From Pseudomonadota bacterium (GTDB lineage: Bacteria; Pseudomonadota; Gammaproteobacteria; SURF-13): a stretch of DNA of 64,000 nucleotides. The position numbers and the translations under genes are program-made. The DNA lies in the NCBI GenBank assembly GCA_027624315.1, contig JAQBXX010000004.1:442-64441 (forward strand), given 5' to 3'. The notes beneath the pieces were generated by a model. It had not been told where the DNA came from. It made no database searches and saw nothing but the letters and a program-made list of their open reading frames with translations. Positions 1,135 to 64,000 of the stretch are shown here, in pieces; within the stretch, counting starts at the first letter, position 1, and the number at the start of each line of letters is the position of its first letter.

Positions 1135-1284
1135 GGGTACCTCTAAAAATGCGTCTTTTGCTCCAATACTGTTGCAGCTTCGCCAGTTTACTATTGGGCT
1201 GCTCACATACTGACGTGTATGCTGCGCTGCTCGACGGCGCTGCGCCTTGTCTTGAAGCAAAATCCATCATTTTTAGAGGCACCC
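1135..1284. mobile_element. MITE family A, copy 1
   Basis: TIR GGGTACCTCTAAAAATG ... CATTTTTAGAGGCACCC; body matches copies at 3720, 21822, 57512. Confidence 0.85.
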
Positions 1285-3719: not shown

Positions 3720-3916
3720 AAGAGCACCTCTAAAAATGCGTCTTTTGCTTCAATACTGCGTTACAGCTTGTCTGCGCTGCTCACATACTAACTTGTATGC
3801 TGTGCTGTACAGGGACGTACGAATGTCGCGGGCGCAGGACGCGCAGGAGCGACCGCTGCTCGCCTGCACTGCGCCTTGTCTTGAAGCAAAATCCATCATT
3901 TTTAGATGGTGCTCTT
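3720..3916. mobile_element. MITE family A, copy 2, carrying a nested 48-bp insert (3807-3854)
   Basis: AAGAGCACCTCTAAAAATG ... CATTTTTAGATGGTGCTCTT; about 50 bp longer than the other copies. Confidence 0.85.
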
Positions 3917-5713: not shown

Positions 5714-5812
5714 TTCCCTTCCCCCTGGAAGGGGGAAGGTGAGGATGGGGGTCGTAGGTCAGGCGTAAACATTGACCCCCACCCCAGCCCTCCCCCTGGA
5801 AGAGGGAGGGGA
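5714..5812. repeat. CCCTCTCCC-type palindromic doublet
   Basis: TTCCCTTCCCCCTGGAAGGGGGAAGG...ACCCCCACCCCAGCCCTCCCCCTGGAAGAGGGAGGG. Confidence 0.7.
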
Positions 5813-5849
5813 TTTATTAAGGGTGAGCCCATGTATTGTGAGCGGTCCT

Positions 5850-7631: not shown

Positions 7632-7799
7632 GGGGTGCTCCTGAATGTTGTGCGGCGCGAGGACGCTATTCCATGAGACTACTATACCTAAAAGTGGGTC
7701 AGCTTGGGGGCGGCGCCGGGCAAAACTTGTATTTCGGCGCCCCATCCCTCAGAATTTCCATGCTTGAATGTACGGGTTTGTCTGGATGGGTATCGGGGT

Positions 7800-9062: not shown

Positions 9063-9068
9063 CAACGA

Positions 9069-9167
9069 TCAACGCAAAGACGCTAAGACGCCAAGCAGGC
9101 GAAAGTTCTTTGAGAAGATTATTTTTTGGAAGTTATATACCTTGGCGTCTTAGCGTCTTTGCGTTGA
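9069..9167. repeat. Octamer inverted-array element, copy 1
   Basis: Perfect 27-bp arms TCAACGCAAAGACGCTAAGACGCCAAG / CTTGGCGTCTTAGCGTCTTTGCGTTGA around an AT-rich loop. Confidence 0.9.
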
Positions 9168-9185
9168 GTCGTAAGGAACACAACC

Positions 9186-26543: not shown

Positions 26544-27236
26544 ATGCCGGAATATCTGCCAGAGTATCTGATAGCCCCGTCGATACTGTCGGCGAACTTT
26601 GCGCGTCTGGGCGAAGAAGTCGACAACGTGCTCAAGGCGGGCGCCGACGTCGTGCACTTCGATGTGATGGACAACCATTACGTGCCCAATCTCACCATCG
26701 GTCCGCTGGTGTGCGAGGCGCTGCGCAAGCACGGCGTCACCGCGCCGATCGACGTCCACCTCATGGTGAAGCCGGTGGACCGCATTATCCCCGACTTCGC
26801 CAAGGCCGGCGCCACCTATATTACTTTTCACCCCGAGGCCACCGAACACATCGACCGCTCGCTGCAACTGGTGCGCAGCCTGGGCTGCAAATCCGGCCTG
26901 GTGTTCAATCCGGCCACGCCGCTCGATCACCTGAAATACGTCATGGACAAGATCGACATGATCCTGCTCATGTCGGTCAACCCCGGCTTCGGCGGGCAGA
27001 GCTTCATCCCCGCTACGCTGCCCAAGCTGCGCGAGGCGCGCAAACTGATAGACGCCAGCGGCTATGACATCCGTCTGGAAATAGACGGCGGGGTGAACAC
27101 CGCGAACATCCGCGAGATCGCGGCGGCGGGCGCGGATACCTTCGTCGCAGGCTCGGCCATTTTCAGCACGCCGGATTACAAAGCCACCATAGACAAGATG
27201 CGCGCGGAATTGGCCAAAGCGGGTAAGGCCTCCTAA
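26544..27236 (+). CDS. rpe: Ribulose-phosphate 3-epimerase
   Basis: [36 protein letters not shown]; start approximate. Confidence 0.96.
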
Positions 27237-27242
27237 AAATCC

Positions 27243-27360
27243 AACGCAAAGACGCGAAGACGCAAAGATATAGAATCTAATGATTGTTTCCGCACTTTAA
27301 GCACTCGGTGGCCCACCTTGCCACATGAATTATTCCTTTGCGTCTTCGCGTCTTTGCGTT
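27243..27360. repeat. Octamer inverted-array element, copy 2
   Basis: Perfect 25-bp arms AACGCAAAGACGCGAAGACGCAAAG / CTTTGCGTCTTCGCGTCTTTGCGTT. Confidence 0.9.
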
Positions 27361-27383
27361 AAGGCTTTTTTAAAATTAATCTC

Positions 27384-28085
27384 ATGACATTAAAAATTCC
27401 CAAGATGGTGTTGATAGACCTGGACGGCACGCTGGTCGACAGCGCGCCCGATCTCGCCTATTGCGTGGACGAAACGCTTAAACACCTGGGCCTGCCGCCG
27501 CAAGGATTGGCGCGCGTGCGCGACTGGGTCGGCAACGGCGTGGAAAAGCTCATGCGCCGCGCGCTCACCGGTGACATCGACGGTGAACCTGATGTCGCCC
27601 TGCTCAAACGCGCCATGCCGGTTTTCCTGGAGCTATATGAGGGCAACCTCGCGCAGCGTAGCCATTTATTTCCCGGCATACGCGAAGGTATCGCGCTGCT
27701 TAAGGCGCAAGGCATTGCGTTGGGTTGCGTCACCAATAAAATCGCGCGTTTCACCGAGCCGCTGTTGAAACAGCTCGGCGTGCGCGATGCCTTCGCCATC
27801 GTGGTCAGCGGCGACACGCTGCCACAGAAAAAACCGCATCCCGCGCCGCTGCTGCACGCGGCACAGTTTTTTAACGTGGCGCCGCACGAGTCGCTCATGG
27901 TGGGCGACTCGGTGCACGACGTGGAGGCCGCGCGCGCCGCCGGTTTTCAGGTGGTGTGCGTGAGCTACGGCTACAACCACGGCAGCGACATCCGCGCCGC
28001 CCAGCCTGACGCAGTGATAGATTCTCTGCTAGAATTACCGAAGCTGTTTGATGCGAGTGGCGAGTGGCTAGTAGCGAGTGGCTAG
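27384..28085 (+). CDS. gph: Phosphoglycolate phosphatase
   Basis: [19 protein letters not shown]; rpe-gph-trpE order. Confidence 0.94.
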
Positions 28086-28119
28086 GAAAAACGTTTTTCC
28101 CTCGCCACTGGCTACTCGC
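28053..28119. repeat. Heptamer inverted-array element
   Basis: GCGAGTGGCGAGTGGCTAGTAGCGAGTGGCTAG - GAAAAACGTTTTTCC - CTCGCCACTGGCTACTCGC. Confidence 0.85.
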
Positions 28120-28131
28120 TCCTGCCTTAAT

Positions 28132-29649
28132 ATGACACCGCAACTATTCGACGCCCTGGCCCGTCAGGGCTATAACCGTATCCCGCTGGTACGCGAGGTC
28201 TGCGCTGACCTCGACACGCCGCTCAGCGCCTATCTCAAGCTCGCAAATGAACCGTATTCGTATTTATTCGAATCGGTGCAGGGCGGCGAGAAGTGGGGGC
28301 GTTACTCCATCATCGGTCTGCCGTGCCGCACCATCGTGCGCGTCTCCGGTCACGACATCAGCGTGGAGAAAGACGGCGCGATGACCGAGCAGGTGAAAGA
28401 CAGCGATCCGCTGCGCTGGATTGAGCAATTTCAGGCGCGCTACAAGATCGCCCCCGCTGCCGGACTGCCACGTTTCACCGGCGGCCTGGTCGGCTATTTC
28501 GGCTACGACACGGTGTGCTACATCGAGCCGCGTCTGGCGGGGACGCATAAACCCGACGCGCTCGGCACGCCGGACATTCTGCTCATGGTGTCGGACGAGG
28601 TGGTGGTGTTCGACAACCTGAGCGGCAAGCTTTATCTGGTGATCCACGTCAACCCGGCGCTGGAAGATGCCTGGAGCAGGGCGCAGGCCAGACTCGACGA
28701 GCTCGTCGAACGCTTGCAGCGCGCCACACCGCATCCGCATGACGCCGCGCACGTGCTGCGCGCAGAGGATTTCGTGTCCGGCTTCACGCAGCAGGGTTTT
28801 GAACAGGCCGTCGCGCGCGCCAAGCACTACATCGTGGAAGGCGACATCATGCAGGTGGTGTTGTCGCAGCGCCTCAGCGCGCCGTATGCAGGCAGCGCGC
28901 TGAATTTTTACCGCGCGCTGCGCACGCTGAACCCGTCGCCGTATATGTATTATCTCGATCTCGGCGATTTTCACGTGGTCGGTTCCTCGCCCGAAATTCT
29001 CACGCGCCTGGAAGACGGCATCATCACCGTGCGCCCCATCGCCGGCACGCGCAAGCGCGGTAGCACCGAAGAGGAGGACCGCGCACTGGAGCAGGAACTG
29101 CTCGCCGATCCGAAAGAGCGCGCCGAGCATTTGATGTTGATAGACCTGGGCCGCAACGACGTGGGGCGCGTGGCCGAGACCGGCAGCGTCCAGCTCACCG
29201 AGAAAATGCTGGTGGAGCGCTACTCGCACGTGATGCACATCGTGTCCAACGTCACGGGGCGGTTGCAAAAAGGCATGACGGCGCTGGACGCCCTGCGCGC
29301 CACCTTCCCGGCGGGCACGGTGAGCGGCGCGGCCAAAATCCGCGCCATGGAAATCATTGATGAGCTGGAGCCGGTGAAGCGCGGTATTTACTCCGGCGCG
29401 GTGGGCTATCTCGGCTGGAACGGCAACATGGATACCGCGATTGCGATCCGCACCGCCGTGCTCAAGGACGGCCTGCTGCACGTGCAGGCGGGCGCGGGCA
29501 TCGTCGCCGACTCGGTGCCGCGCACGGAATGGGAGGAGACCATGAGCAAGGCGCGCGCGTTGGTAAGTGCAGCGGTGACGGCATCCAGAGGTCTCGATGT
29601 CACCCCCGTCACAGTGCCGGAGATCGTTGAGGTTAGGCCATGCTCCTGA
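28132..29649 (+). CDS. trpE: Anthranilate synthase component I
   Basis: [32 protein letters not shown]. Confidence 0.96.
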
Positions 29650-30227
29650 TGATCGACAACTACGATTCCTTCACCTACAACCTGGTGCAATATCTGGGCG
29701 AGCTGGGCGCGGACGTGCGCGTGTTCCGCAACGACCGGATATCCACCGCCGAAATCAAAAAACTCGCGCCCGCGCAGATCGTCATCTCGCCGGGGCCGTG
29801 CACGCCGAATGAGGCGGGCGTGTCGGTGGATGCGATCAAGCAGTTCGCGGGGAAAATCCCGCTGCTCGGCGTCTGCCTTGGTCACCAGAGCATCGGCCAG
29901 GCGTTCGGCGGCAAGATCATCCACGCACGCGAACTGATGCACGGCAAGACCTCAATGATTTATCACACGGGCAAGGGTGTGTTTAAAGGTTTGCCGAGCC
30001 CGTTCGAGGCGACGCGCTATCACTCGCTGGTGATTGAAAAAGAAACGCTGCCGGACTGTCTGGAGATCACCGCGTGGACGCAGGACGCGCAAGGCAAGCT
30101 GGACGAGATCATGGGCGTGCGCCACAAGACACTCAATGTTGAGGGTGTACAGTTTCACCCGGAGTCCATACTCACGCAGTATGGGCACGATTTACTGAAG
30201 AATTTTTTACAAGCAAGTGGCGAGTAG
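29640..30227 (+). CDS. trpG: Anthranilate synthase component II (glutamine amidotransferase)
   Basis: [26 protein letters not shown]. Confidence 0.95.
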
Positions 30228-30283
30228 CGAGTGGCTAGGGAAAAACACTTTTACTCGCCACTAGCCACTCGCAACTAGCTACT
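30216..30283. repeat. Heptamer inverted-array element
   Basis: AGTGGCGAGTAGCGAGTGGCTAG - GGAAAAACACTTTT - ACTCGCCACTAGCCACTCGCAACTAGCTACT. Confidence 0.85.
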
Positions 30284-30292
30284 GAGATAACC

Positions 30293-31312
30293 ATGGACAT
30301 GCAAACCGCCATCCGCGCCGTGGTCGAGCGGCGTAATTTATCCGGGGACGAGATGACCGCGGTGATGGAGACCATCATGAGCGGTGCCGCCACCCCGGCG
30401 CAGATCGCAGGCTTTCTTATCGGGCTGCGCATGAAGGGCGAAACTATCGAGGAGATCGCCGCCGCCGCGCGCGTGATGCGCGAGCTGTGCACCAGGGTCG
30501 AGGTGCATGCGGAGCATCTGGTGGACACCTGCGGCACGGGCGGCGACGGCGCACACAGCTTCAATATCTCCACCGCCGCCGCGCTGGTGGCCGCCGCCGC
30601 GGGCGCGGTGGTCGCCAAGCACGGCAACCGCTCGGTGTCCAGTAAGTCCGGCAGCGCCGACGTGCTCGAGGCGGCGGGCGTCAATCTCGATCTCACGCCG
30701 GAGCAGGTCGCGGCGTGCATCGAAAAAATCGGCGTAGGATTTTTGTTCGCGCCCAGACATCACGGCGCGATGAAGCATGCCGCCGCGCCGCGCCGCGAGA
30801 TGGGCGTGCGCACGCTGTTTAATCTGCTCGGGCCGCTCACCAATCCCGCCGGTGCGCGCAACCAGGTGCTCGGTGTGTGGGGCGCCGAGTGGCTGGAGCC
30901 GCTCGCCTCCGCGCTGGCGCGCCTTGGCAGCCGCCATGTGCTGGTGGTCAACGCCGAAGACGGCATGGACGAGATCAGCATCGCCTCGCCCACGCACGTC
31001 GCGGAACTCAAGGACGGCGCCATTGTGACGTATGTCATTGTGCCGGAGGAATTCGGCATGACGCGCACCGACGGTGCGAGTCTGGTGGTGGCGAGTCCGC
31101 AGCAAAGTCTGGATGTCATCCACACGGTGCTGGACGGCACGCCGGGCCCTGCCGCCGACATCGTGGCGCTTAATGCCGGCGCGGCCATTTACGTCGCGGG
31201 TCTCGCGCCGACACTGGAGCAAGGCGTACGCAAGGCGCAGGCCGTGATCGCCAGCGGCGCGGCACGCAAAAAGCTTGCCGCATTAATCAACTTCACTCAG
31301 AATTTTAAATAA
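30293..31312 (+). CDS. trpD: Anthranilate phosphoribosyltransferase
   Basis: [28 protein letters not shown]. Confidence 0.97.
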
Positions 31313-31317
31313 AAAAC

Positions 31318-31469
31318 CAACGCAAAGACGCGAAGACGCAGAGAATACGAAGACGGTATGGTTCAAGAAGTTATGATTAGATCATTTCCGCCTTCTACTC
31401 TGCCTGGAGCAATCCCCAGTGGGACTTTAGCAGCCAAAAAAATCTTTGCGTCTTGGCGTCTTTGCGTTG
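31318..31469. repeat. Octamer inverted-array element, copy 3
   Basis: CAACGCAAAGACGCGAAGACGCAGAGA ... TCTTTGCGTCTTGGCGTCTTTGCGTTG, about 100-bp loop. Confidence 0.88.
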
Positions 31470-31483
31470 AGACTTGTTGATAC

Positions 31484-32311: not shown

Positions 32312-32727
32312 AGGCGCGCGTGAAATGGGTGGAGAACAGCACGTTTGTCGCACAAAGCGGCAGCGGTCACTCCGTGGTGCTGGACGGCCCGCCGGAGGCG
32401 GGCGGGCAGAATCTCGGCGTGCGGCCGATGGAGATGGTGCTGCTGGGGCTGGGCGGCTGCACCGCGTTTGACGTGGTGGACATCCTCAGGAAAAAGCGCG
32501 AGACCATCAGCGATTGCGTGGTCGAGATCAGCGCCGAGCGCGCCGACACCGTGCCCAAGGTGTTCACCAAGATACACCTGCACTACATTGTGCGCGGCAG
32601 CAACGTGAAGGAAGAATCGGTGAAGCGCGCGGTGGAGTTGTCGGCGGAAAAATACTGCTCGGTGTCGATGATGCTGAACAAGAGCGTCGCGATGACGCAC
32701 GACTATGAAATTGTAAAGACTGACTAA
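32308..32727 (+). CDS. OsmC/YhfA-family protein
   Basis: [24 protein letters not shown]. Confidence 0.9.
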
Positions 32728-32730
32728 AAG

Positions 32731-32873
32731 CTCAACGCAAAGTCGCCAAGACGCCAAGACGCCAGGGTTTATGATAAGTAATCCGATTCAACCAAGGTAC
32801 CCATTCTCGCCTGAAATGCCTGCTGCCTTGACCGGCAGCAGTAATGTTTTTGGCGTCTTTGCGTCTTTGCGTT
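32731..32873. repeat. Octamer inverted-array element, copy 4
   Basis: CTCAACGCAAAGTCGCCAAGACGCCAAGACGCCA ... TGGCGTCTTTGCGTCTTTGCGTT. Confidence 0.85.
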
Positions 32874-32897
32874 AGATTTTGTCAGAGCTATAAGCCC

Positions 32898-36172: not shown

Positions 36173-36185
36173 AGGGATACAAAGA

Positions 36186-36267
36186 CTCAACACAAAGCCG
36201 CCAAGACGCGAAGGTTTTTAGGCTATGTCTCTTTGCGTTCTCTGCGCCTTAGCGGCTTTGCGTTGAG
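36186..36267. repeat. Octamer inverted-array element, copy 5 (degenerate)
   Basis: CTCAACACAAAGCCGCCAAGACGCGAAG ... GCGCCTTAGCGGCTTTGCGTTGAG. Confidence 0.75.
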
Positions 36268-36287
36268 CATTTTATAAATTTTAAGCC

Positions 36288-37637: not shown

Positions 37638-38030
37638 ATGACAGACAACATACATTACAGCACCGGGCGCCGCAAAAGTGCGACCGCGCGCGTGTTTCTC
37701 AAGCCCGGCAAGGGCGTGATCACGGTCAACAACCGTACCCTGGAAAACTACTTCGGGCGCGAGACCTCGCGCATGATGGTGCGCCAGCCGCTGGAAAGTG
37801 TGCAGCTCGGTGACCGGTTTGAAATCAACGTCACCGTCAGTGGCGGCGGCGCCACCGGTCAGGCTGGCGCTATCCGCCACGGCATCACCCGCGCCCTCAT
37901 GTCCTACGACGAAAGCCTGCGCCCGGTATTGCGCAAGGCCGGCTTCGTCACCCGCGATGCGCGTGAAGTAGAGCGCAAGAAAGTCGGCCTGCACAAGGCA
38001 CGCAAGGCGCCGCAGTATTCGAAGAGATAG
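37638..38030 (+). CDS. rpsI: 30S ribosomal protein S9
   Basis: [25 protein letters not shown]. Confidence 0.98.
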
Positions 38031-38436
38031 TAGCGAGTTGCTAGTAGCTAGTTGCTAGCAACGACATGGAGGCGCTTGAGAGGCTGGAGGTATGGAAGCG
38101 CAGCAGTCGCCTCTGTGTTGATATCTACAAGAACTTTGATAAGTGCACCCATTACGGATTCAAAGATCAAATAAGCCGCGCCGCTTTATCAATACCCTCC
38201 AACATTGCTGAAGGTTATGAACGTGATTTCCGAAAGGAACGCATCCGCTTCCTGAGAATAGCCAAAGGCTCTTGTGGCGAGCTTTGGACACAGCTTAACA
38301 TCGGTATAGCGGCGGAATTTATAGAAAAGGCAGTGGGTCTGGCCTTAGCCCAAGAAGCAGCAGAGTTATCGAAAATGCTGCAAGGGCTGATTAAATACTA
38401 CCAAAAAGCGGATAGTCCCTAGCTACTCGCTACTGT
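38029..38436. mobile_element. Heptamer inverted-array element carrying a four-helix-bundle gene
   Basis: Left arm AGTAGCG AGTTGCT AGTAGCT AGTTGCT AGC (38029-38059); right arm CTAGCTACTCGCTACTGT (38419-38436). Confidence 0.75.
38066..38422 (+). CDS. Four helix bundle protein (23S-rRNA-IVS-protein/TIGR02436-like family)
   Basis: LEVWKRS, FKDQISRAALSIPSNIAEG, FLRIAKGSCGELWTQL; more AT-rich than its flanks. Confidence 0.9.
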   Translation: MEALERLEVWKRSSRLCVDIYKNFDKCTHYGFKDQISRAALSIPSNIAEGYERDFRKERIRFLRIAKGSCGELWTQLNIGIAAEFIEKAVGLALAQEAAELSKMLQGLIKYYQKADSP

Positions 38437-38442
38437 TTTTAT

Positions 38443-38516
38443 TGGGGGATCGTCTAGCGGTAGGACTACGGACTCTGACTCCGTTAACCGAGGTTCGAAT
38501 CCTCGTCCCCCAGCCA
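38443..38516 (+). tRNA. tRNA-Gln(CUG)
   Basis: TGGGGGA/TCCCCCA acceptor stem, ACGGA-CTCTGAC-TCCGT anticodon arm, GGTTCGAATCC, CCA end. Confidence 0.96.
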
Positions 38517-38523
38517 TACAACT

Positions 38524-38598
38524 ACAGTGGCTAGTGGCGAGTGGCTAGTAGCTAGGAACAACCAACCTCGCCACTCGCTACTCGCTACTCGCCACTGT
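38524..38598. repeat. Heptamer inverted-array element (empty)
   Basis: ACAGTGGCTAGTGGCGAGTGGCTAGTAGCTAG - 11 nt - CTCGCCACTCGCTACTCGCTACTCGCCACTGT. Confidence 0.9.
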
Positions 38599-38601
38599 CT
38601 T

Positions 38602-39180
38602 TCAAGTCCACAACGCCTCACCCCGCGCCGCGCGCGCCGCGATCTCCTGCTGAAACGCCGGCGGCCCGAAGCCGAACCACTGCCCCCCCGACGAGTAGAT
38701 AAACGGGCGGACGTGCTTGATGGAATAGGCCTCATACCAGTCCAGCATGCGCTGGTCCGGGTCGCGTCCGGCGGACACCAGCACATCCACCGGTTTGCCG
38801 CGCCAGATCGAGCGGCCGGTGAGCACGATCACGCTGCACTGCTCGGGCTTCATCCACTCCGGCAAATGGCTGCCCGCCTCGGCCCAGCCGCAGAAGAAGA
38901 CGCGGCACGGGTCTTCCGGGCGCTTTTCATGAATGGTGCAGCGATGGCCGTCGCTGTACGGGCAGGGATGGCCGAGGGAGATGTCATTCCCCAGCACGCG
39001 CGTCTTCAGCCAGCCGTCGCAGCACAGCGAGCAGTCGCCGCAGGGGCGGATGGCGGTGGTCGCGGTGGTGGGCGCAGAGGCTGCCGGTGTGGCAGCGCCG
39101 TGGCATTTTTTGTATTTCAGGCCGCTGCCGCACGGGCAGGGGTCGTTGCGTCCGGGGGTGTTCAGGATGGCCTCATCAGC
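38602..39180 (-). pseudogene. SEC-C motif plus Cys-cluster protein lacking an evident start codon
   Basis: Frame reads [28 protein letters not shown]...[13 protein letters not shown]...CP...[17 protein letters not shown]; no in-frame ATG found before the SEC-C motif. Confidence 0.6.
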
Positions 39181-39251: not shown

Positions 39252-39491
39252 ATGAAAACCGTCGGCGCCTTTGAAGCAAAAACCCATTTGTCCCGCCTGC
39301 TGGATAAAGTCGAACAGGGGGAAAAGATTACCATAACCCGGCACGGAGCGCCCGTCGCCAGGCTGGTGCCGGTTGAAACGGAGGAAAAGCCCGACGTTAA
39401 AAAGGTGATTGAGGAAATCCGGGCCTTTCGCAAAGGTAACAAACTGAGGGGCCTTTCGCTGCGTAAAATGATTGAAGAAGGGCGGGCTTGA
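39252..39491 (+). CDS. Phd/YefM-family antitoxin
   Basis: MKTVGAFEAKTHLSRLLDKVEQGEKITITRHG. Confidence 0.92.
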   Translation: MKTVGAFEAKTHLSRLLDKVEQGEKITITRHGAPVARLVPVETEEKPDVKKVIEEIRAFRKGNKLRGLSLRKMIEEGRA

Positions 39492-39907
39492 TGCCGAAGC
39501 TGGTTCTGGATTGTTCGGTTACCATGGCGTGGGCGTTTGATGATGAAAATGATGCCTACGCTGATGGCATACTTACTCTGCTTGAGCAAGGCCAGGCACT
39601 GGCGCCATCCATCTGGCCTTTAGAGGTTGCCAATACGCTATTGATGGGAGAGCGAAGAGGGCGGCTTACCGAGGCGAAAACACGCTGGTTTATAGGCAAG
39701 CTCAAAGGCTTGCGGGTAACGGTTGACGCAGTTGGGCCGAACCAGATTTTTGGCACCCTGTTGAGCCTCGCGCGCGAGCATAAACTTTCCAGCTACGATG
39801 CCGCTTATCTTGATCTAGCCCTGCGCGAAGGGCTACCGCTCGCTACCCGCGACCAAAAGCTGCGTCTGGCCGCGCGCCACTGCGGTGTACCCTTGGCGGG
39901 GAAATGA
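39488..39907 (+). CDS. vapC: VapC PIN-domain toxin
   Basis: LVLDCSVTMAW, WPLEVAN, YDAAYLDLA, LATRD; overlaps the antitoxin stop. Confidence 0.9.
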   Translation: MMPKLVLDCSVTMAWAFDDENDAYADGILTLLEQGQALAPSIWPLEVANTLLMGERRGRLTEAKTRWFIGKLKGLRVTVDAVGPNQIFGTLLSLAREHKLSSYDAAYLDLALREGLPLATRDQKLRLAARHCGVPLAGK

Positions 39908-39962
39908 GCTTCTTGAGCCTCATGTCACTCGGTCAAGCCCTGGGGATGGTTGCCGAGCAAAC

Positions 39963-40135
39963 TTAGGGAACCTCTGATTTAATCAGAGGTTCCTGCGGTG
40001 CAGGGATGCACCGCCATTTTTCAAACACGGAAGTGTTTGAAAAATGAAGAAAAGCACCATAAATAATCTTATGGCCACGTTTTTGCTTTTCGTGCTCTGA
40101 GAAGTCCAGGATGGACTTATTCAGAGCTTCCTTAG
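39963..40135. mobile_element. MITE-like family B multi-hairpin element
   Basis: Imperfect TIR TAGGGAACCTCTGATTTA / TTATTCAGAGCTTCCTTA; internal hairpins with AGGGAT, GGAA and AGGAT loops. Confidence 0.7.
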
Positions 40136-40210
40136 GTCACGTTGCGTAAGCTACGTGACGGAGCTGCGAAGCCGCGCATCCTGTCAGGCAGCTTACGCAG
40201 CCTGACCTAC
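40133..40210. repeat. GTAG-type REP-like element abutting MITE B
   Basis: TAGGTCACGTTGCGTAAGCT ... AGCTTACGCAGCCTGACCTAC. Confidence 0.6.
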
Positions 40211-40374
40211 AATTGCCCGGTGTGTTGCTTTTTAGCAACACCGACGCAAGAACTGTAGTTTTTTTAATAAAAAGTGTTGCAGGGCCGCTAAAGGCGTGAT
40301 ACGTTTCGCATGTCAATTGACGTCAATCGACACCTGTAACACAACTTTCGATCTTTTCGATAAGGAGATAATGA

Positions 40375-41328
40375 ATGAACAAGAAAATTCTTGCAGTAGC
40401 CATTGCAAGCGCGATGGCAGCCCCGTTCGCGATGGCCGACGAAGGTAGCGTCACCATCAGCGGCAACGTGGGTGCAGCCGTCACCTCGATAAAGAATAAT
40501 GACGACACGAGAGCCTCCGATGTCGATGCGGGCGGTTCAGATCTGTCCATTTCCGGCTCTGAGAACATCGGCAACGGCCTGAAGGCCGTGTTCGTGCTGA
40601 AGAGCTGGCTCAATGTCACTGGAAACGCGGATCAGCCACCAGCTTCCTCGCTGCTGTTTGGTAATAACAAGGACGCCTTCGTGGGTCTGGCCGGTAACTT
40701 CGGCACCATAGCCCTCGGCGCCCATGGCCAGCCCTACAAGACGGCCACCGGCGGTCTGGAACTGTTCGGCGACACCATCGGCGACGCCCGTGGCTCCGTC
40801 ACCAACGGCCAAGGCAGCTTCCACTCCGGCATCGGCGATGCTGTGATCTGGTTCCTGCCCAACATGAACGGCTTCAGCGGCCACGTGCAGATAGGCTCTG
40901 AAAATAACACGAATAACGGCGCACAGAAGCGCGGTGCACAGTTTAATTACAGCAACGGCCCGCTGTATATGACCTATGCCTATGCCGATGATGACGCTAC
41001 GGCCAATGAAACAGGCAACAAGTTCGGCGTCGGCTACGGCTTCGGCGACACCAAGATCAACGTCGTCGCTGAACGCACCAAGGTGCAGGATGGTACAGCC
41101 ATAAGCGCCTACTCCGTGGGCTTGGCGCATAAATTCGGCGCCAACACCGCGAAAATCCAGTTTGCCAGCAACGATTCTGGCGCGGCTGATGTAAGCATCT
41201 GGGCGGTGGGTCTGGATCATGCGTTGTCCAAGCGCACCGGTCTGTACGCTGTGTACGCCGATGGCGACAACCTGGCGTCAACGGAGATGGATAACGGGTT
41301 AGAAGTGGGTATAGGCCACAGCTTCTAA
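40375..41328 (+). CDS. Gram-negative trimeric porin
   Basis: Signal peptide MNKKILAVAIASAMAAPFAMA, GSENIGNGLKA, LDHALSKRT, C-terminal GIGHSF. Confidence 0.9.
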   Translation: MNKKILAVAIASAMAAPFAMADEGSVTISGNVGAAVTSIKNNDDTRASDVDAGGSDLSISGSENIGNGLKAVFVLKSWLNVTGNADQPPASSLLFGNNKDAFVGLAGNFGTIALGAHGQPYKTATGGLELFGDTIGDARGSVTNGQGSFHSGIGDAVIWFLPNMNGFSGHVQIGSENNTNNGAQKRGAQFNYSNGPLYMTYAYADDDATANETGNKFGVGYGFGDTKINVVAERTKVQDGTAISAYSVGLAHKFGANTAKIQFASNDSGAADVSIWAVGLDHALSKRTGLYAVYADGDNLASTEMDNGLEVGIGHSF

Positions 41329-43289: not shown

Positions 43290-43310
43290 TAGCATAAATA
43301 CCGATAAAAA

Positions 43311-43376
43311 CTCAACGCCAAGCCGCCAAGACGCAAAGCAGGAACAGAAAATAAATCTTTGCGTCTTCGCGTTGAG
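43311..43376. repeat. Octamer inverted-array element, copy 6
   Basis: CTCAACGCCAAGCCGCCAAGACGCAAAG ... CTTTGCGTCTTCGCGTTGAG. Confidence 0.82.
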
Positions 43377-43407
43377 CAGTTAAACATCCTGGCGTTAGAC
43401 TCCAGCA

Positions 43408-49303: not shown

Positions 49304-51652
49304 TCAACTTGCTTCAGCAGGCTGTTCCGGCATCTCATACGGTTCGGCGTAGCCGCATTCTTTCTGCGGGCACACCTTTTCCGTGCCGCGGCGCTTGGTG
49401 GTTTTGATGGTGAGGAGGGGCCACTGGCACTTGGGGCAGGGTTCGACGATGGGCTCGTTCCACACCGCGTAGGTGCATTTTGGGTACGTCGCGCAGGAAT
49501 AAAAAATCTTGCCGTAGCGCGATTTGCGTTTTAACAGATTCCCCGCGTGACACAGCGGGCATTCGACGCCGGTGTCAGCGGGTTTTTCCAGCGGCTCGAT
49601 GTGCTTGCAGTTGGGATAATTGCTGCAGCCGATGAACTTGCCGTAGCGGCCGCGCTTGATGATGAGCTGGCTCTGGCACTCCGGGCAGTTGCGGCCTTCC
49701 ACCACTTCCGGCACGGCGTCAGGGGCATCGTCGAGGTTGCGCGTGTAGTCGCAGTCGGGATAGGCGGTGCAGCCGATGAACTTCCCGCGCCGGCCCAGGC
49801 GGATGGAGAGCGGTTTGCTGCACTTGGGGCAGGCCTCGTCCATGGCCTCCTGCGTGACGTCCTTGCGCAGCACGGTTTCGTCTTTGGTGGTGACCTGTTT
49901 GTGGAACGGTTTCCAGAATTTCTCCATTACCGGCGCCCATTCCTTTTCACCGCGCGCGATGGCGTCGAGCTCGTCCTCAAGCTTGGCGGTAAAGTCGTAA
50001 TCGACGTATTGGGTGAAGTGCTGGGTGAGGAATCTGCTCACCACGCTCCCGACATCGGTGGGGGTGAAGCGGTGTTTTTCGAGCGTGACATACTCGCGCG
50101 CGACCAGCGTGGAGATGATGTTCGCGTAGGTGGAGGGGCGGCCGATGCCGTACTCTTCCAGGGTTTTGACCAGACTCGCCTCGGTGTAACGCGGCGGCGG
50201 CTCGGTGAAGTGCTGTTCGCTGCGGATGGCGAGCAGCGTGACGGTTTCGCCTTCCTTGAGCGGCGGCAGTATGCGCTCGTCGTCTTCCGCTTTGGTGTCG
50301 TCGCTGCCTTCCTGGTACACCGCCATGAAGCCGGGGTCGACGACCGTGGAGCCGTTGGCGCGGAACAGGTGGGTCTCTGCGGTCGCTCCCGGCGTCCTGC
50401 CTCCCGCGACACTAGTACGTCCCTGTACGTCGCCTGCCGCGAGATCGACGCCTACCGTGTCGATGGTGGCGTGTATCATCTGGCAGGCGACGGTGCGTTT
50501 CCAGATCAGTTGATAGAGCTTGATCTGGTCGGGGGAAAGGTGGGCCTTGATGGCTTCCGGCGTGCGCTCGACCGAGGTCGGGCGGATGGCCTCGTGCGCC
50601 TCCTGCGCGTTTTTCGCGCGTGTCTTGTACACCTGCGGCTGTTTGGGCAGGTTGTGTTCGCCGTAACGCTGCGCGATGAAGGCGCGGATTTCGGCAATGG
50701 CCTCCTGCGCAAGATTCACCGAATCGGTACGCATGTAACTGATGAGGCCGACCGCGCCTTCACCGGTGTCCATGCCTTCGTAGAGTTGTTGCGCGGTGCG
50801 CATGGTGCGTTGCGCGCCGAAGCCGAGCTTGCGCGCCGCTTCCTGTTGCAGCGTGGAGGTGGTGAACGGCGCGGCGGGATTGAGTTTTCGGCTTTTCTTT
50901 TCCACCTTGACCACGGTGAGTTTGCCTGCGGCCGCTTTTTCCAGCGCCTTCTGCGCCGCATGCGCGGCAGCGGTGTCGGTGATGCTGAACTGTTCCTGCT
51001 TATTGCCCTGATACACGTTGAGTCTGGCGCTGAAGGCATGCTTGTCTTTGGCGAGATCGGCCTCGATGCTCCAGTATTCGCGCGCCACGAATTTTTCGAT
51101 TTCTTCCTCGCGCTCCACGATCATGCGCAGCGCCGGGCTCTGCACGCGGCCGGCGGAGAGTCCGCGCCGGATTTTGGTCCACAACAGCGGCGAGAGATTG
51201 AAGCCCACCAGATAATCGAGTGCGCGCCGCGCCTGCTGTGCGTTGATGAGCTCCATCGACAGCTCGCGCGGGTGCTGCACCGCCTCGTTTACCGCGCGGT
51301 TGGTAATTTCGTGGAACACCACGCGCTGCACCAGCTTGCCCTTGAGCGCTTTGCGTTCCTTGAGAATTTCGTACAGGTGCCAGGAGATGGCCTCGCCCTC
51401 GCGGTCAGGGTCGGTGGCGAGGTAGAGCGTGTCGGCCTTCTTCATCGCCTTGGCGATGGCGTCCACGTGTTTTTCGTTTTTCTCGATGAGCTGATACTTC
51501 ATGGCGAAGCCGTGCGCCGTGTCCACTGCGCCCTCCTTGGGCAGCAGGTCGCGCACGTGACCGTACGAGGCCAGCACCTCGAAGTCCTTGCCGAGGTACT
51601 TCTTGATGGTCTTGGCCTTGGCCGGCGACTCAACGACGATGAGATGTTTCAT
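49304..51652 (-). CDS. topA: DNA topoisomerase I with zinc-ribbon tail and an in-frame insertion
   Basis: VESPAKAKTI, ATDPDREGEAI, SAGRVQS, ISYMRTDS, C4 zinc ribbons. Confidence 0.97.
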   Translation of the reverse strand: MKHLIVVESPAKAKTIKKYLGKDFEVLASYGHVRDLLPKEGAVDTAHGFAMKYQLIEKNEKHVDAIAKAMKKADTLYLATDPDREGEAISWHLYEILKERKALKGKLVQRVVFHEITNRAVNEAVQHPRELSMELINAQQARRALDYLVGFNLSPLLWTKIRRGLSAGRVQSPALRMIVEREEEIEKFVAREYWSIEADLAKDKHAFSARLNVYQGNKQEQFSITDTAAAHAAQKALEKAAAGKLTVVKVEKKSRKLNPAAPFTTSTLQQEAARKLGFGAQRTMRTAQQLYEGMDTGEGAVGLISYMRTDSVNLAQEAIAEIRAFIAQRYGEHNLPKQPQVYKTRAKNAQEAHEAIRPTSVERTPEAIKAHLSPDQIKLYQLIWKRTVACQMIHATIDTVGVDLAAGDVQGRTSVAGGRTPGATAETHLFRANGSTVVDPGFMAVYQEGSDDTKAEDDERILPPLKEGETVTLLAIRSEQHFTEPPPRYTEASLVKTLEEYGIGRPSTYANIISTLVAREYVTLEKHRFTPTDVGSVVSRFLTQHFTQYVDYDFTAKLEDELDAIARGEKEWAPVMEKFWKPFHKQVTTKDETVLRKDVTQEAMDEACPKCSKPLSIRLGRRGKFIGCTAYPDCDYTRNLDDAPDAVPEVVEGRNCPECQSQLIIKRGRYGKFIGCSNYPNCKHIEPLEKPADTGVECPLCHAGNLLKRKSRYGKIFYSCATYPKCTYAVWNEPIVEPCPKCQWPLLTIKTTKRRGTEKVCPQKECGYAEPYEMPEQPAEAS
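50381..50428 (-). repeat. 48-bp GGA-loop module inside topA
   Basis: GTACAGGGACGTACTAGTGTCGCGGGAGGCAGGACGCCGGGAGCGACC; matches 3807-3854. Confidence 0.85.
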
Positions 51653-51658
51653 ATCAAT

Positions 51659-51861
51659 ACAGTGGCTAGTGGCGAGTAGCTAGTGGCGAGAAAAGGAATG
51701 GATACCTCGTCACCGCCTTTATTAAAGCAAAGCCCGCTGGACGCGGGCTTAAAAGTTTTTGAAGCAACTTTAAGTGCTGCTTAATTTCCATAATTGATAA
51801 AATATCTACACATGTTTATTCGTAAGTTTTGCGTTGCTAGCCACTCGCTACTAGCTACTGT
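51659..51861. repeat. Heptamer inverted-array element with an about 146-bp AT-rich loop
   Basis: ACAGTGGCTAGTGGCGAGTAGCTAGTGGCGAG ... CTAGCCACTCGCTACTAGCTACTGT. Confidence 0.85.
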
Positions 51862-51863
51862 CT

Positions 51864-52343
51864 TTAATGCAGATTCCCCGCCGTTTCGTCGAACACGATG
51901 TTCTTCATCCACGCAAACGCCGCTTCCTGGCCGGGGCGGTTGAACAGCACCATGAGCACGACCCATTTCAATTCTTCCAGGCTGATCTCTTCCGCGCCCA
52001 GGGCCATGACGCGATCGATGACGAGCTCGCGCGCAATCGGATCGAGCACGCCGCTGTGCTGCAGGAATTGCAGGTAGCCGCAACCCGCCACGTCGAGTTT
52101 GGCGATCTCCTGGTCGGTGAAGATGCGCAGCGACGGATTGACCTGTGTGGCATACGGCACGGGCTGATCCTGCAGCAACGCCAGCCCTTCGAGCCAGTCG
52201 AGGGCCTTGTCGATCTCGGTGTGCGGGAAACCGGCCTCCATCAGCTCGAGCTTGAGTGATTCCTGGTCCGGATTGACGTCGACTTCCTCGTCCATATAGC
52301 TTTCGAAGAGATACATCAGCACATCCAGTACGTTTTCCTTCAT
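51864..52343 (-). CDS. smg: Smg/DUF494 protein
   Basis: MKENVLDVLMYLFE, AGF, ELVIDRVMAL, LKWVVLMVLF. Confidence 0.92.
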   Translation of the reverse strand: MKENVLDVLMYLFESYMDEEVDVNPDQESLKLELMEAGFPHTEIDKALDWLEGLALLQDQPVPYATQVNPSLRIFTDQEIAKLDVAGCGYLQFLQHSGVLDPIARELVIDRVMALGAEEISLEELKWVVLMVLFNRPGQEAAFAWMKNIVFDETAGNLH

Positions 52344-56207: not shown

Positions 56208-57524
56208 ATGACGGCCAATACCCGGACGGTGGTGGCGTACACGCTGGTGCAGGTGCTGGAGCAGCGCAAATCGCTGAGCGAGGTGCTCGCGCCGCAATTG
56301 GCGCACATCTCCGCCCCGCGCGAACGCAGCCTCGCGCAGGAGATCTGCTACGGCGTGCTGCGCTGGCACCTGCGGCTGGAGGCCGTGCTGGGGCGCCTGT
56401 TGCGTGCGCCGTTCAAGGAGCGGGACAAGGACATCCATTGCCTGCTGCTCGCCGGTCTGTACCAGCTGATCTATCTGCGCCTGCCCGCGCATGCCGCGGT
56501 GGACGCCACGGTGGAGGCCACGCTCGCGCTCGACAAGGGCTGGGCCAGGGGCGTGGTGAATGCGGTGCTGCGCCATTATCTGCGCGACAGTGAGCGCCTG
56601 CTGGCGGCGGCGGATGCAGACGAGTGCGCGCGCCTCGCGCATCCCACCTGGCTGCTGGAGCTGCTCAAGCAGGCGTGGCCCCACGGCCATAATCTCCCAT
56701 CGTGGCAGGCCATCGCCGCGGCCAATAACGAACGTGCGCCGATGTGCCTGCGCGTGAACATGCGGCGCACCACGCGCGCGGAGTATCTGGCACAGTTGCA
56801 GGCCTCCGGTATCGCCGCGCACGCTACCTTATATAGCCCGCAAGGCGTGACGCTGGAGAAGCCGGCGGGCGTCGAAGGCCTGCCCGGTTTTGCCGCAGGC
56901 GAGATGTCCGTGCAGGACGAGGGCGCGCAGCTTGCTGCCGGCCTGCTTGCGGCCGAGCCCGGCGAGCGCGTGCTGGATGCCTGTAGTGCGCCGGGCGGCA
57001 AGGCCTGCCATATCCTCGAAACCACGCCCGCTCTGCTAGAATTGGTGGCGCTCGACAATTCCGCTGCGCGCCTCGCGCGCGTGCAGGAAAATCTCGATCG
57101 TCTGGGGCTGGCTGCTACGCTGGTGGAGGGCGATGCCGGCGCGCCGCAGACCTGGTGGGACGGCCGGCCGTTTGACCGCATCCTGCTCGATGCACCGTGT
57201 TCGGGCACCGGCGTGATCCGCCGCCACCCCGACATCAAGTGGCTGCGCCGGGCCACGGATATCGCCGCGGCGGCACAGGCACAGCAGCGCTTGTTGCGCG
57301 CACTGTGGCCGTTGCTGAAACCGGGCGGTGTGCTGCTGTATGCAGTCTGTTCGGTGCTGCCGCAGGAGGGCGAACATCAGGTGCGCGACTTTATGGCAGG
57401 ACAGCCGAATGCGCGCGCCGAGCCGCTCGCGCTGCCCGCAGACGCAGAAGGCGGTACTATCCTCACCGGCAGTCACGGGATGGATGGGTTTCATTATGCG
57501 CGCTTACGCAAAGGGTACCTCTAA
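56208..57524 (+). CDS. rsmB: 16S rRNA m5C967 methyltransferase
   Basis: NusB-like N-terminus, VQDEGAQ, DACSAPGGK, DAPCSGTG. Confidence 0.95.
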   Translation: MTANTRTVVAYTLVQVLEQRKSLSEVLAPQLAHISAPRERSLAQEICYGVLRWHLRLEAVLGRLLRAPFKERDKDIHCLLLAGLYQLIYLRLPAHAAVDATVEATLALDKGWARGVVNAVLRHYLRDSERLLAAADADECARLAHPTWLLELLKQAWPHGHNLPSWQAIAAANNERAPMCLRVNMRRTTRAEYLAQLQASGIAAHATLYSPQGVTLEKPAGVEGLPGFAAGEMSVQDEGAQLAAGLLAAEPGERVLDACSAPGGKACHILETTPALLELVALDNSAARLARVQENLDRLGLAATLVEGDAGAPQTWWDGRPFDRILLDAPCSGTGVIRRHPDIKWLRRATDIAAAAQAQQRLLRALWPLLKPGGVLLYAVCSVLPQEGEHQVRDFMAGQPNARAEPLALPADAEGGTILTGSHGMDGFHYARLRKGYL

Positions 57525-57654
57525 AAATGCGTCTTTTGCTCCAATACTGCGTTGCAGCTTGTCTCCGCTGCTCACATACTAACTCGTATGCTGCGCTGCT
57601 CGACGGCGCTGCGCCTTGTCTTGAAGCAAAATCCATCATTTTTAGAGGTACCCT
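57512..57654. mobile_element. MITE family A, copy 4
   Basis: AGGGTACCTCTAAAAATG ... CATTTTTAGAGGTACCCT; contains the rsmB stop. Confidence 0.87.
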
Positions 57655-61818: not shown

Positions 61819-63192
61819 ATGAAAATTATTATTCTAGGCGCGGGCCAGGTCGGTTCCTCAGTCGCCGCCAATCTGGTGAGTGAGGCCAACGACATCACCG
61901 TGGTGGACAGTGACGCCAAACGCCTGCAGGAACTTCAGGTGCGCTTCGATCTGCGCACGGTGCAGGGGCATGCCTCGCATCCGGAGGTATTGCAGCGCGC
62001 CGGGGCGGAGGACGCGGACATCCTCCTCGCCGTCACCAACAGCGATGAAACCAATATGGTGGCCTGTCAGGTGGCGCATACCCTGTTTCATACGCCCACC
62101 AAGATCGCGCGTGTGCGCGCCCAGGAATATCTTTCTTATCCGCAGCTCTTCACGCCGAAGGCGTTTCCCATAGATGTGCTCATCAGCCCCGAGCGGCTCG
62201 TTACCGATTATGTGCAACACCTGATCGAATATCCCGGCGCGCTGCAAGTGCTCGATTTCGCCGGTGGGCGCGTGCAGCTGGTCGCGGTCAAGGCGTACTA
62301 CGGCGGCCCCCTGGTCGGGCGCGAACTGCGCGAACTGCGCGAGCACATGCCGAATGTGGAGACGCGCGTGGTGGCGATCTACCGGCGCGGCCAGTCCGTG
62401 GTGCCGCAGGGCGTCACCGTGATCGAGGCCGATGACGAGGTGTTTTTCATCGCGGCGACCCAGCACTGCCGCGCCGTGATGAGCGAGCTGCGCCGCCTCG
62501 ACCAGCCCTACAAGCGCATCATGATTGCGGGCGGCGGCAACATCGGCAAGCGTCTCGCCACCGTGCTGGAGAATGACTATCAGGTCAAGCTCATTGAGCA
62601 CAATCCGACACGTGCGCGTGCCATTTCCGAGGAACTGCACAACACCACGGTGCTTGAGGGCGATGCCACTGACGAAGAGCTGCTGCTGCAGGAGAATATC
62701 GAGGACATCGACATTTTCTGCGCGCTCACCAACGACGATGAGGACAACATCCTCTCCGCCATGCTTGCCAAGCGCATGGGCGCGCGCAAGGTGATGGCGC
62801 TCATCAATCGCGCGAGCTATGTGGACTTGATGGAAAGCGGCAGCATTGATATTGCGATCTCGCCGCAGCAGGCGATGATCGGAACCCTGCTGGCGCATGT
62901 GCGGCGTGGTGACGTCGCTGTGGTGCATTCGCTGCGGCGCGGCGCGGCAGAGGCCATCGAGGCGGTGGCGCATGGCGACAGCCGTTCCTCCAGGGTGGCG
63001 GGCCGCTCCATCGAAGACATCAAGCTGCCGGCCGGCACCACCATCGGCGCCATTGTGCGCGGCGACGAGGTGATCATCGCGCACCATGACACCGTGATCC
63101 AGCCGGAAGACCATGTGATCCTGTTTCTGGTCGACAAAAAACGCATCTCCGAAGTCGAGCGCCTGTTCCAGGTGGGTGTGACGTTTATTTAA
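61819..63192 (+). CDS. trkA: Trk potassium uptake protein TrkA
   Basis: [30 protein letters not shown]. Confidence 0.96.
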
Positions 63193-63193
63193 T

Positions 63194-63313
63194 GCAGTGG
63201 CGAGTAGCTAGTGGCGAGTTGCGAGTAATGAGGATTTATTGTTCATGGATATTCCTGATGAATAAGCTTGGGAAGCAGTCCCTCGCTACTAGCCACTAGC
63301 TACTAGCCACTGC
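63194..63313. repeat. Heptamer inverted-array element
   Basis: GCAGTGGCGAGTAGCTAGTGGCGAGTTGCGAGT ... CTCGCTACTAGCCACTAGCTACTAGCCACTGC. Confidence 0.87.
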
Positions 63314-63317
63314 CTTT

Positions 63318-64000
63318 ATGCAATTCACCGTCATTCAACGCATCATGGGCCTGCTGCTGATGCTGTTCAGCATCACCATGCTGCCGCCGCTGCTGCTTGC
63401 CTGGTTCCGTTATGACGGGACGATAGAGGCCTTTTTGTGGTCGTACGGCATTACGCTCGTCAGCGGTTTGCTGCTGTGGCTGCCGGTGCGCGCCGTTAAA
63501 AAAGAGCTGCGCCTGCGCGATGGCTTTGTGATCGTGAGCCTGTTCTGGGCGCTGCTCGCCTTGTTCGGTGCGCTGCCGTTCATGTTCGCGCACGATACGG
63601 CAACATTTGCCGACGCCTACTTTGAAACCATGTCCGGTCTGACCACCACCGGCTCCACTGTGCTGGTCGGGCTGGATCAGTTGCCCATATCTATCAATCT
63701 GTGGCGCGGGATTTTGCAGTTTCTGGGCGGCATGGGCATCGTGGTATTGGCGGTGGCCATCCTGCCCATGCTGGGTGTGGGCGGTATGCAGCTTTACAAG
63801 GCCGAAACGCCGGGCCCGATGAAGGACAGCAAACTCACGCCGCGCATCAAGGAAACCGCCAAGGCGCTGTGGTATATCTACGTCGGCCTCGTGGTGTTGT
63901 GTGCCGCCGCCCTCTGGCTCGCGGGCATGACGCCGTTCGACGCCATTTTTCACAGCTTCACGGCGGTGGCGACCGGCGGCTTTTCCACCCACGATGCGGG
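63318..64000 (+). CDS. trkH: Trk potassium uptake permease TrkH (partial, runs off the window)
   Basis: In-frame FETMSGLTTTGST, QFLGGMGI, KLTPRIKETAK, ATGGFS. Confidence 0.93.
   Translation, partial: MQFTVIQRIMGLLLMLFSITMLPPLLLAWFRYDGTIEAFLWSYGITLVSGLLLWLPVRAVKKELRLRDGFVIVSLFWALLALFGALPFMFAHDTATFADAYFETMSGLTTTGSTVLVGLDQLPISINLWRGILQFLGGMGIVVLAVAILPMLGVGGMQLYKAETPGPMKDSKLTPRIKETAKALWYIYVGLVVLCAAALWLAGMTPFDAIFHSFTAVATGGFSTHDA

Follow-up and report, generated by a model that had tools for sequence, protein, structure and literature searches.

Small palindromic repeats that lie in frame in protein-coding genes have been described as Rickettsia palindromic elements (RPEs) and as QMITE1 of Coxiella (PMC10969869). 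Insertion sequences (IS) of the IS5 type duplicate a target of 4 bp with the motif YTAR (PMC5009759). At the RNA level, CsrA recognises the consensus RUACARGGAUGU, of which ACA and GGA are fully conserved, and prefers the GGA in the loop of a hairpin (PMC4347634). In a stretch of 64,000 nucleotides (nt) of a gammaproteobacterium (SURF-13; assembly GCA_027624315.1, contig JAQBXX010000004.1, positions 442 to 64,441), hereafter called the window, a first-pass annotation had noticed hairpins with conserved GGA loops in two repeats, an element B and a shorter module, and had proposed that these are mobile modules that bind CsrA or act as a sponge for it. We found that the hairpins belong to small mobile DNA elements of two kinds: element B, a miniature transposable element with inverted repeats (MITE) of the IS5 type, and a dispersed unit of 51 nt, here called the module. 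The A(N)GGAN loops and the covarying stems are a genuine, strand-specific and conserved property of both elements. With moderate confidence we explain them as an intrinsic feature of selfish mobile elements, any binding of CsrA being a by-product.

Element B is an IS5-type MITE. The 11-bp terminal inverted repeats, GGAACCTCTGA and TCAGAGCTTCC, match at 10 of 11 positions in the window and are conserved across copies, all complete copies beginning with GGAASCTCTGA and ending with TCAGAGSTTCC. Ten independent copies each have their own 4-nt direct flanks of the form NTAR (TTAG, CTAA, CTAG, TTAA and one ATAG), which together with the inverted ends characterise transposition of the IS5 type. A scan of JGI metagenome contigs, with a search pattern sited outside the loops, and further finds in other loci brought together about 25 unique copies; they are 150–165 bp long and contain no open reading frame (ORF). 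Within the window B is present as a single copy, and its standing as a repeat, claimed by the first-pass annotation, was confirmed by metagenome contigs only. In contigs of three public metagenomes, coverage is 14 outside the element and 57-131 over exactly 39961-40164, 4-9 times the depth of the flanks; breakpoints of the contigs lie at 39967/39994 and 40131-40135, beyond which they run on into unrelated sequence. B is thus a short, transposase-free, multicopy element with terminal repeats and a 4-bp duplication. A second subfamily shares this core and the TTAG duplication but differs in its ends (CAGGMTGTTGAAAA).

B resembles the known MITEs of the IS5 family in its size, its lack of an ORF, its inverted repeats starting with GGAA, its 4-bp (C/T/A)TA(A/G) duplication and its many copies in unrelated flanks. 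It differs from them in that each end pairs with its own inverted copy located internally (the pairs of the left terminal palindrome, helix 1, are retained in most copies), in that its interior is a strand-specific set of hairpins common to two subfamilies with different ends, and in that it has no parent IS in the loci and plasmids searched. BLAST of B against the PLSDB plasmids gave no match, and the B pattern gave 0 matches in viral contigs. When an empty site of B was looked for, the look-up with vapC gave no record and that with the porin gene returned the same sample only. In one locus (L187:4211-4516) two copies of B stand in tandem with one terminal repeat in common and a single TTAG duplication outside the pair. 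The features of B and of the other repeats in the window are listed in Table 1.

Table 1. Positions of element B, its hairpins, the module copies and their host element in the window
Feature	Position	Strand	Remarks
Element B, 165-bp non-autonomous transposon (MITE), IS5 type	39967..40131	+	between vapC and porin gene
Left target-site duplication TTAG	39963..39966	.	same 4 nt at 40132-40135
Right target-site duplication TTAG	40132..40135	.	
Left terminal palindrome of B	39967..39993	.	inverted-repeat end GGAACCTCTGA (39967-39977) and inverted copy (39983-39993)
Hairpin 1 of B, GCGGTGC-AGGGAT-GCACCGC	39995..40014	+	followed by T5 run (CATTTTT)
Hairpin 2 of B, ATTTTTCAAACAC-GGAA-GTGTTTGAAAAAT	40016..40045	+	stem kept across copies
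A/T-rich hairpin of B, AAAAGCA...TGCTTTT	40050..40090	+	helix 4; 99% paired, compensatory changes in 5/7 pairs
Right terminal hairpin of B, GCTCTGA...TCAGAGC	40094..40127	+	encloses hairpin 3
Hairpin 3 of B, AAGTCC-AGGAT-GGACTT	40102..40118	+	loop (A)NGGAN retained in most copies
Right terminal inverted repeat of B, TCAGAGCTTCC	40121..40131	.	
Element A copy, MITE-like, hosts module	3722..3914	.	ends GAGCACCTCTAAAAATG / CATTTTTAGATGGTGCTC, similar to B end GGAACCTCTGA
Module copy, subtype GCT-GTACAGGGACGTAC-GAA-TGTCGCGGGCGCAGGACGCGCAGGAGCGACC	3804..3854	+	nested in element A; antisense to tRNA-Gln and prs
Module copy in topA, DVQGRTSVAGGRTPGAT	50381..50431	-	in frame, 17 codons

All hairpins reported by the first-pass annotation were present when the sequence was checked directly. 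In an alignment of 19 copies of B, 20 stem pairs showed compensatory changes, versus 6.5 ± 1.9 after shuffling (0 of 500 shuffles reached 20), and 90.7% of the cells in the helices were paired, versus at most 48.7% in controls with slid partners. The loop of hairpin 1, A-x-G-G-A, is invariant in all 19 copies, with compensatory changes in 4 of its 7 stem pairs. Hairpin 3 carries (A)NGGAN on four different stems, covarying versions being AAGCCC/GGGCTT and AAGACC/GGTCTT; its loops among copies are AGGAT, TGGAC, AGGAG, GGGAC, ATGGAT, ACGGAC and TTGGAA, with one exception, ATGAAT (L208). The loop of hairpin 2 is variable (GGAA, GCAA, GAAA, CAAA, a flipped TTCC, GCTAA and GCCGTAG). When folded to minimum energy, two of the loops shrink to a GGGA tetraloop and a GGA triloop through additional closing A-T pairs. 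Compared with shuffled sequences, segment 39960-40140 gave z = -10.7 and -12.0 on the two strands; the folding is strong on both strands, as is to be expected of palindromes in the DNA. As a class, hairpins with a GGA loop are not enriched in the window (28 versus 31 ± 5 in Markov simulations), so the phenomenon is confined to these repeats.

The copy of B in the window has an extra nested hairpin, CCATAA-ATAATC-TTATGG, at 40057-40074, which is absent from most copies. Nearly the same insert is present in L195, and L210 and L211 have other small hairpins at the equivalent place. It resembles yet another tiny nested insertion.

Hairpin 1 and the T-run that follows it have a terminator-like score, and B lies directly 3' of vapC. 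B could accordingly be read as a cassette that terminates transcripts or stabilises mRNA 3' ends, like REP, ERIC and SPRITE, in which hairpin 1 with its T-run and the A/T-rich hairpin end or protect neighbouring transcripts and the GGA loops are merely compact, stable loops closed by G...A. The mostly GNRA-like loops of hairpin 2 (GGAA, GCAA, GAAA) agree with this, as does the presence of GAA loops among the exceptions to GGA (L208, ATGAAT; L143, AGAAT). However, the module, which is mostly intragenic and has no T-run, is left unexplained by such a cassette, B is found in mixed orientation with many copies upstream of genes, and the conservation of the T-run is biased, as the run was in our search pattern for B. 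We consider this explanation quite unlikely.

The second element was described by the first-pass annotation as a module of 48 bp, but the conserved unit is longer: a length of exactly 51 nt is found in 73 of 80 copies, with the consensus GAC-GTACAGGGACGTAC-TAR-TGTCGC GGGA GGC AGGAY GCC GGGA GCGAC-C. The two copies in the window lie in opposite orientations. That at 3807-3854 (+) forms the hairpins GTAC-AGGGAC-GTAC and GCGC-AGGAC-GCGC, and in that at 50381-50428 (-) the second hairpin is GGC-AGGAC-GCC. The first of these interrupts a copy of element A, and the copies of element A at 1135-1284 and 57513-57653, which are uninterrupted, are shorter by exactly 51 nt at the site of the module. Depth over the module was 540-1084 in a source-like sample (X1), versus 14.5 in the flanks, and 5800-7900 versus 59 in a groundwater sample (X3); in related metagenomes it was about 40-130 times that of the flanks.

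A pattern scan of species-representative genomes, in which the loops were left free, gave 75 module loci, almost all in metagenome-assembled genomes (MAGs) of Gammaproteobacteria. The groups concerned are Acidiferrobacterales, Sulfurifustaceae, Thiohalophilus, Methylomonas, Methylovulum and Muproteobacteria, with a few MAGs labelled outside the class, and the isolates Rhodanobacter thiooxydans, Stenotrophomonas sp. and Thiohalophilus thiocyanatoxydans also carry the module. Looser matching with nhmmer in the 0.7 Mb of fetched loci gave 115 hits, corresponding to 91 distinct insertion events, with variants in the first stem (GTGC/GCAC, GGAC/GTCC, GCAC/GTGC and GGGC/GCCC). A variant of about 69 nt (L138:6250-6317, L133, L196 and L159) has 18 extra nt, AGCGGCAGCGAAGGGTTC, within the first hairpin, and its length is also divisible by three. 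The proposed mobility of the two repeats is strongly supported, since both are dispersed over many genomes with defined ends and the module has empty sites in relatives.

The copies of the module have no inverted ends and no clear or consistent target duplication. The base preceding it is always a pyrimidine, and the following base is G in 44 of 79 events. A 3-bp GCT duplication at the module in element A was considered and rejected, as matching flanks were not found at other copies. We also considered the module as the excision footprint of a larger element, and no larger version was present in the loci. The 14-mer GTACAGGGACGTAC gave 111 matches in viral contigs, all attributable to chance and none with the remaining module.

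About 70% of the module events (64 of 91) lie within ORFs. The module is open in four of six reading frames and the frames used are +0, +1, -0 and -1; genic copies hardly ever occur in the two frames with a TAA or TAG. Frame +0 is strongly preferred, with 29 events versus 8 for +1. In view of these open frames, through which the copies are read, the module as a translational bypass or hop element was rejected. In topA, metagenome contigs of relatives lack 54 nt at the site of the module, relatives of about 92% identity have topA without the module, and the TopA of L135 (78% identical) is 18 residues shorter at this loop. The best solved structure (PDB 6ozw) has a gap of 19 amino acids (aa) there. 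A Sulfurifustaceae MAG (L160), with a topA of 71% identity, has its own module copy (L160:1104-1154) at the same TopA loop. Either a permissive loop has received the module repeatedly, or the module has been lost.

In behaviour the module may be likened to the RPEs and QMITE1: it is palindromic and dispersed, occupies unrelated genes, has a length that is a multiple of three and is translated as extra peptide, of 17 aa in TopA. The likeness is one of behaviour only, and membership of the family is not claimed. The module differs from RPEs in being three times shorter (RPEs are about 150 bp), GC-rich and without sequence similarity to them, in occurring across many orders of free-living Gammaproteobacteria and not in one intracellular genus, and in nesting inside other MITEs as well.

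Several observations on genic copies may be added. In L114, L124 and L132, within one orthologous gene, the module is about 95% identical and GC-rich, whereas identity falls to about 80% in the coding sequence around it and the genomes have 37-47% GC; synonymous sites of the module show no drift toward A/T, and loop 2 has CGA instead of GGA in all three. A Colwellia MAG (L155, 37% GC) contains a GC-rich copy, truncated at the first hairpin, in a gene with non-matching flanks. In the orthologues of L120 and L144 the module occupies the same site and its inner stem reads GCC/GGC in the one and GAC/GTC in the other, either through compensatory change after insertion or through independent insertions of different variants.

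The remark of the first-pass annotation that stems differ while loops are kept held well beyond the window, in 58 distinct module copies and the 19 copies of B. Loop 1 of the module reads A (54 copies), a variable position (G in 43, T in 8, A in 5), G (57), G (58), A and C, the search pattern having dictated the last two columns; A or T is also frequent as the final base among the looser nhmmer hits. Loop 2 reads A (49), G (52), G (55), A (55) and a variable position (T in 27, C in 20, A in 9, G in 2), and the inner stem of this hairpin has the compensatory variants GGC/GCC, GAC/GTC, GCC/GGC and CGC/GCG. GGA is present about four times per module on one strand and not at all on the other. The 51-nt unit folds as proposed but no better than shuffled sequences (z about -1). 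The proposed structure of the module thus rests on covariation and not on fold energy.

The loops match those of RNAs bound by CsrA, with GGA in a hairpin loop in the context A(N)GGA / RUACARGGAUGU. The match pointed out by the first-pass annotation is correct, GTACAGGGACGT having one mismatch to the SELEX consensus RTACARGGATGT (in DNA form). Hits to this consensus with one mismatch number 2 in the window, versus 0.30 expected, and as both belong to the same repeat family they count as one independent event. It might be argued that the loops are not under any selection, the copies being young and alike by common descent and the likeness to a CsrA site being due to chance. Many copies are indeed near-identical, chance alone would yield 0.3 one-mismatch hits to the 12-mer per window, and GGA-loop hairpins are not enriched window-wide. 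However, the stems have changed with compensation while A, G, G and A of the loop stayed fixed and the adjacent N free, and the same type of loop is found on at least five stems (GTAC, GTGC/GCAC, GGAC/GTCC, GGGC/GCCC and GCGGTGC). An absence of selection therefore appears distinctly improbable.

If the loops are under selection, they could be kept because the elements are functional CsrA/RsmA modules, whose sense copies bind CsrA dimers and act as a distributed sponge or control the mRNAs of the host; in the module, two A(N)GGAN loops 24 nt apart would bind a dimer. The agreement with RUACARGGAUGU, including the conserved ACA and GGA (PMC4347634), the coincidence of the variable positions with the N positions of the loops on covarying stems, and the strand asymmetry of GGA are in line with this. 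So are similarities to the RNAs CsrB/CsrC and RsmX/Y/Z and to CsrA targets: CAGGAYG matches the CsrB repeat, GUACAGGGACGU is one base from the SELEX consensus, and several sites lie within 25-100 nt. Sequences of B also occur in metatranscriptome assemblies, joined to unrelated flanks, in contigs that carry no strand information. The gene orientations given in the first-pass annotation are correct (topA and prs on the minus strand, the Phd/YefM antitoxin and VapC (PIN) genes, upstream of B, and the porin gene, downstream of it, on the plus strand), as is its statement that csrA is absent from the window, which we checked by tblastn with E. coli CsrA and P. aeruginosa RsmA. The same search in the 0.7 Mb of related loci also gave no hit, a result that is uninformative for the remaining genome. 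CsrA is common in Gammaproteobacteria, which is a point in favour of such modules, and an absence of csrA is therefore unlikely to be the fact that decides against them.

However, the orientation of the copies does not agree with a role in RNA. The first-pass annotation had made its proposal depend on a strand bias relative to transcription. Of the genic module events, 39 are sense and 25 antisense (p = 0.10, with crude gene calls), a modest excess of sense copies that leaves about 40% antisense. For B, 7 copies are sense only to neighbouring ORFs, about 12 antisense only and 3 both (crude ORF calls). GGA loops survive to the same extent whether copies are sense (63/68), antisense (41/44) or intergenic (44/46; Fisher p = 1.0), and stem mismatches of the module show no strand asymmetry, with 8 of the G.U type on the GGA strand versus 7 on the other strand (A.C). 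The preference for frame +0 cannot come from RNA binding. No sigma-70-like promoter was found in 39400-40500, and a search of the whole window and both regions against Rfam, at the gathering threshold and at E-values up to 10, detected only tRNAs and noise. The elements thus differ from CsrB/Rsm sponge RNAs in having no promoter, terminator architecture or Rfam match, and in that their copies are mobile, in both orientations and inside ORFs; one of the three GGA loops of B is not conserved. Functional CsrA/RsmA modules are therefore unlikely. The mobility and the resemblance to the motif in the proposal of the first-pass annotation were borne out, whereas a role at the RNA level was not, with mixed orientation and a retention of GGA that does not depend on it. 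A dedicated CsrA-binding role of the hairpins is possible but not supported. Judging from the loop sequences, sense transcripts would display near-consensus ligands, and incidental binding of CsrA to them, as a side effect in hosts that have CsrA, is plausible.

In the explanation that we favour, selfish elements of which the hairpins are an intrinsic part, the loops would persist since all copies stem from source copies that had intact hairpins and could transpose, and not because each inserted copy acts as a CsrA site. Most likely the hairpins would be read in folded single-stranded DNA by the mover of the 51-nt unit, by a logic analogous to that of the ends of IS200/IS605, of REP/RAYT and of integron attC sites. 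B may have captured its hairpins from the module family.

The module shares with REP/REPIN-RAYT and IS200/IS605-derived elements two similar hairpins in direct orientation, the lack of terminal inverted repeats and of a clear duplication, strand specificity, a very small size and a very high abundance. Unlike REP/RAYT, it has no GTAG/GGAG head, and most of its copies lie inside genes and are not extragenic. It also differs from these systems in showing no orientation bias with GC skew, and no Y1/HUH transposase gene could be linked to it.

Several points weigh against the explanation by selfish elements. Retention of A, G, G and A with a free N is exactly what recognition by CsrA predicts, and GUACA(G/A/U)GGA(C/A/U)GU is close to the SELEX optimum. 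The sense excess of genic modules, although non-significant, is in the direction of an RNA role, and the gene calls in the loci on which it depends were crude, based on ORF length and GC3. The orientation of the module relative to GC skew was 47:35 (p = 0.33), whereas a mechanism like that of IS200/IS605 might predict a link. The module has neither inverted ends nor a clear duplication. No autonomous IS with the ends of B was present in the 0.7 Mb of fetched loci or the PLSDB plasmids, and no mobilising enzyme was found. Finally, the core of B and its loops are common to two subfamilies with different inverted ends, so a DDE transposase acting at the ends cannot explain the conservation of the core.

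If the elements are selfish, the module is a previously undescribed and very successful mobile unit of 51 nt, which lengthens essential genes such as topA by 17 codons, keeps its nucleotide sequence even in genomes of 37% GC and is common to orders of free-living Gammaproteobacteria. It would extend the RPE phenomenon outside Rickettsia at one third of the size, and the enzyme that moves it is worth finding. B adds to a known type of MITE, and the module is a variant of the phenomenon of in-frame palindromic elements. Literature searches for the exact module sequences and for CsrA together with MITE gave nothing relevant, and no description of either element was found in the searchable literature. 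There is a slender chance that the 51-nt elements and the hairpin-capturing MITEs have evolved loops that mimic the optimal CsrA/RsmA ligand, so that insertions plant high-affinity sites. This would amount to a mobile, copy-number-dependent sponge or to a rewiring of the Csr/Rsm regulon in environmental Gammaproteobacteria, and would be new in kind. To our knowledge, these would be the first transposable elements to spread sites for a global post-transcriptional regulator in bacteria. In practice, both repeats break metagenome assemblies and can pass for conserved insertions in proteins or for regulatory RNAs.

The two repeats had been regarded as unrelated by the first-pass annotation, which does not hold. 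Units of the module family are nested inside copies of B in L189, L190, L195, L201 and L215, and hairpin 1 of B (GTGCAGGGATGCACC) is identical at 14 of 15 positions to the first hairpin of a module variant. Element A, a repeat of about 150 bp, has three copies in the window (1135-1284, 3722-3914 and 57513-57653) with the ends GGGTACCTCTAAAAATG / CATTTTTAGAGGTACCC, which resemble the end of B, GGAACCTCTGA. The composite of element A and the module is also present in the MAGs L118, L125 and L134, and a related A-like MITE with two modules in opposite orientations was found in L113, L139, L162, L167, L174 and L181.

The window contains two further classes of repeats. Intergenic segments with inverted arrays of 7 nt (GCGAGTG/GCTAGTG/GCTAGTA and their complement) form a separate class of heptamer repeats, located at 8-47, 28045-28132, 30198-30285, 38011-38054, 38515-38605, 51650-51868 and 63185-63320 and often adjoining gene ends or tRNA-Gln. 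Within one of these segments, upstream of topA, lies an additional GGA-loop hairpin, AAGCCCGC-TGGAC-GCGGGCTT (51730-51750), with a stem similar to variants of hairpin 3 of B (AAGCCC-ACGGAC-GGGCTT in L200). The second class of inverted heptamer arrays, AACGCAAAGACGCGAAGACGCAAAGA ... CTTTGCGTCTTCGCGTCTTTGCGTT, brackets intergenic segments of 60-100 nt in six places (9062-9175, 27234-27370, 31310-31478, 32725-32883, 36180-36274 and 43305-43391).

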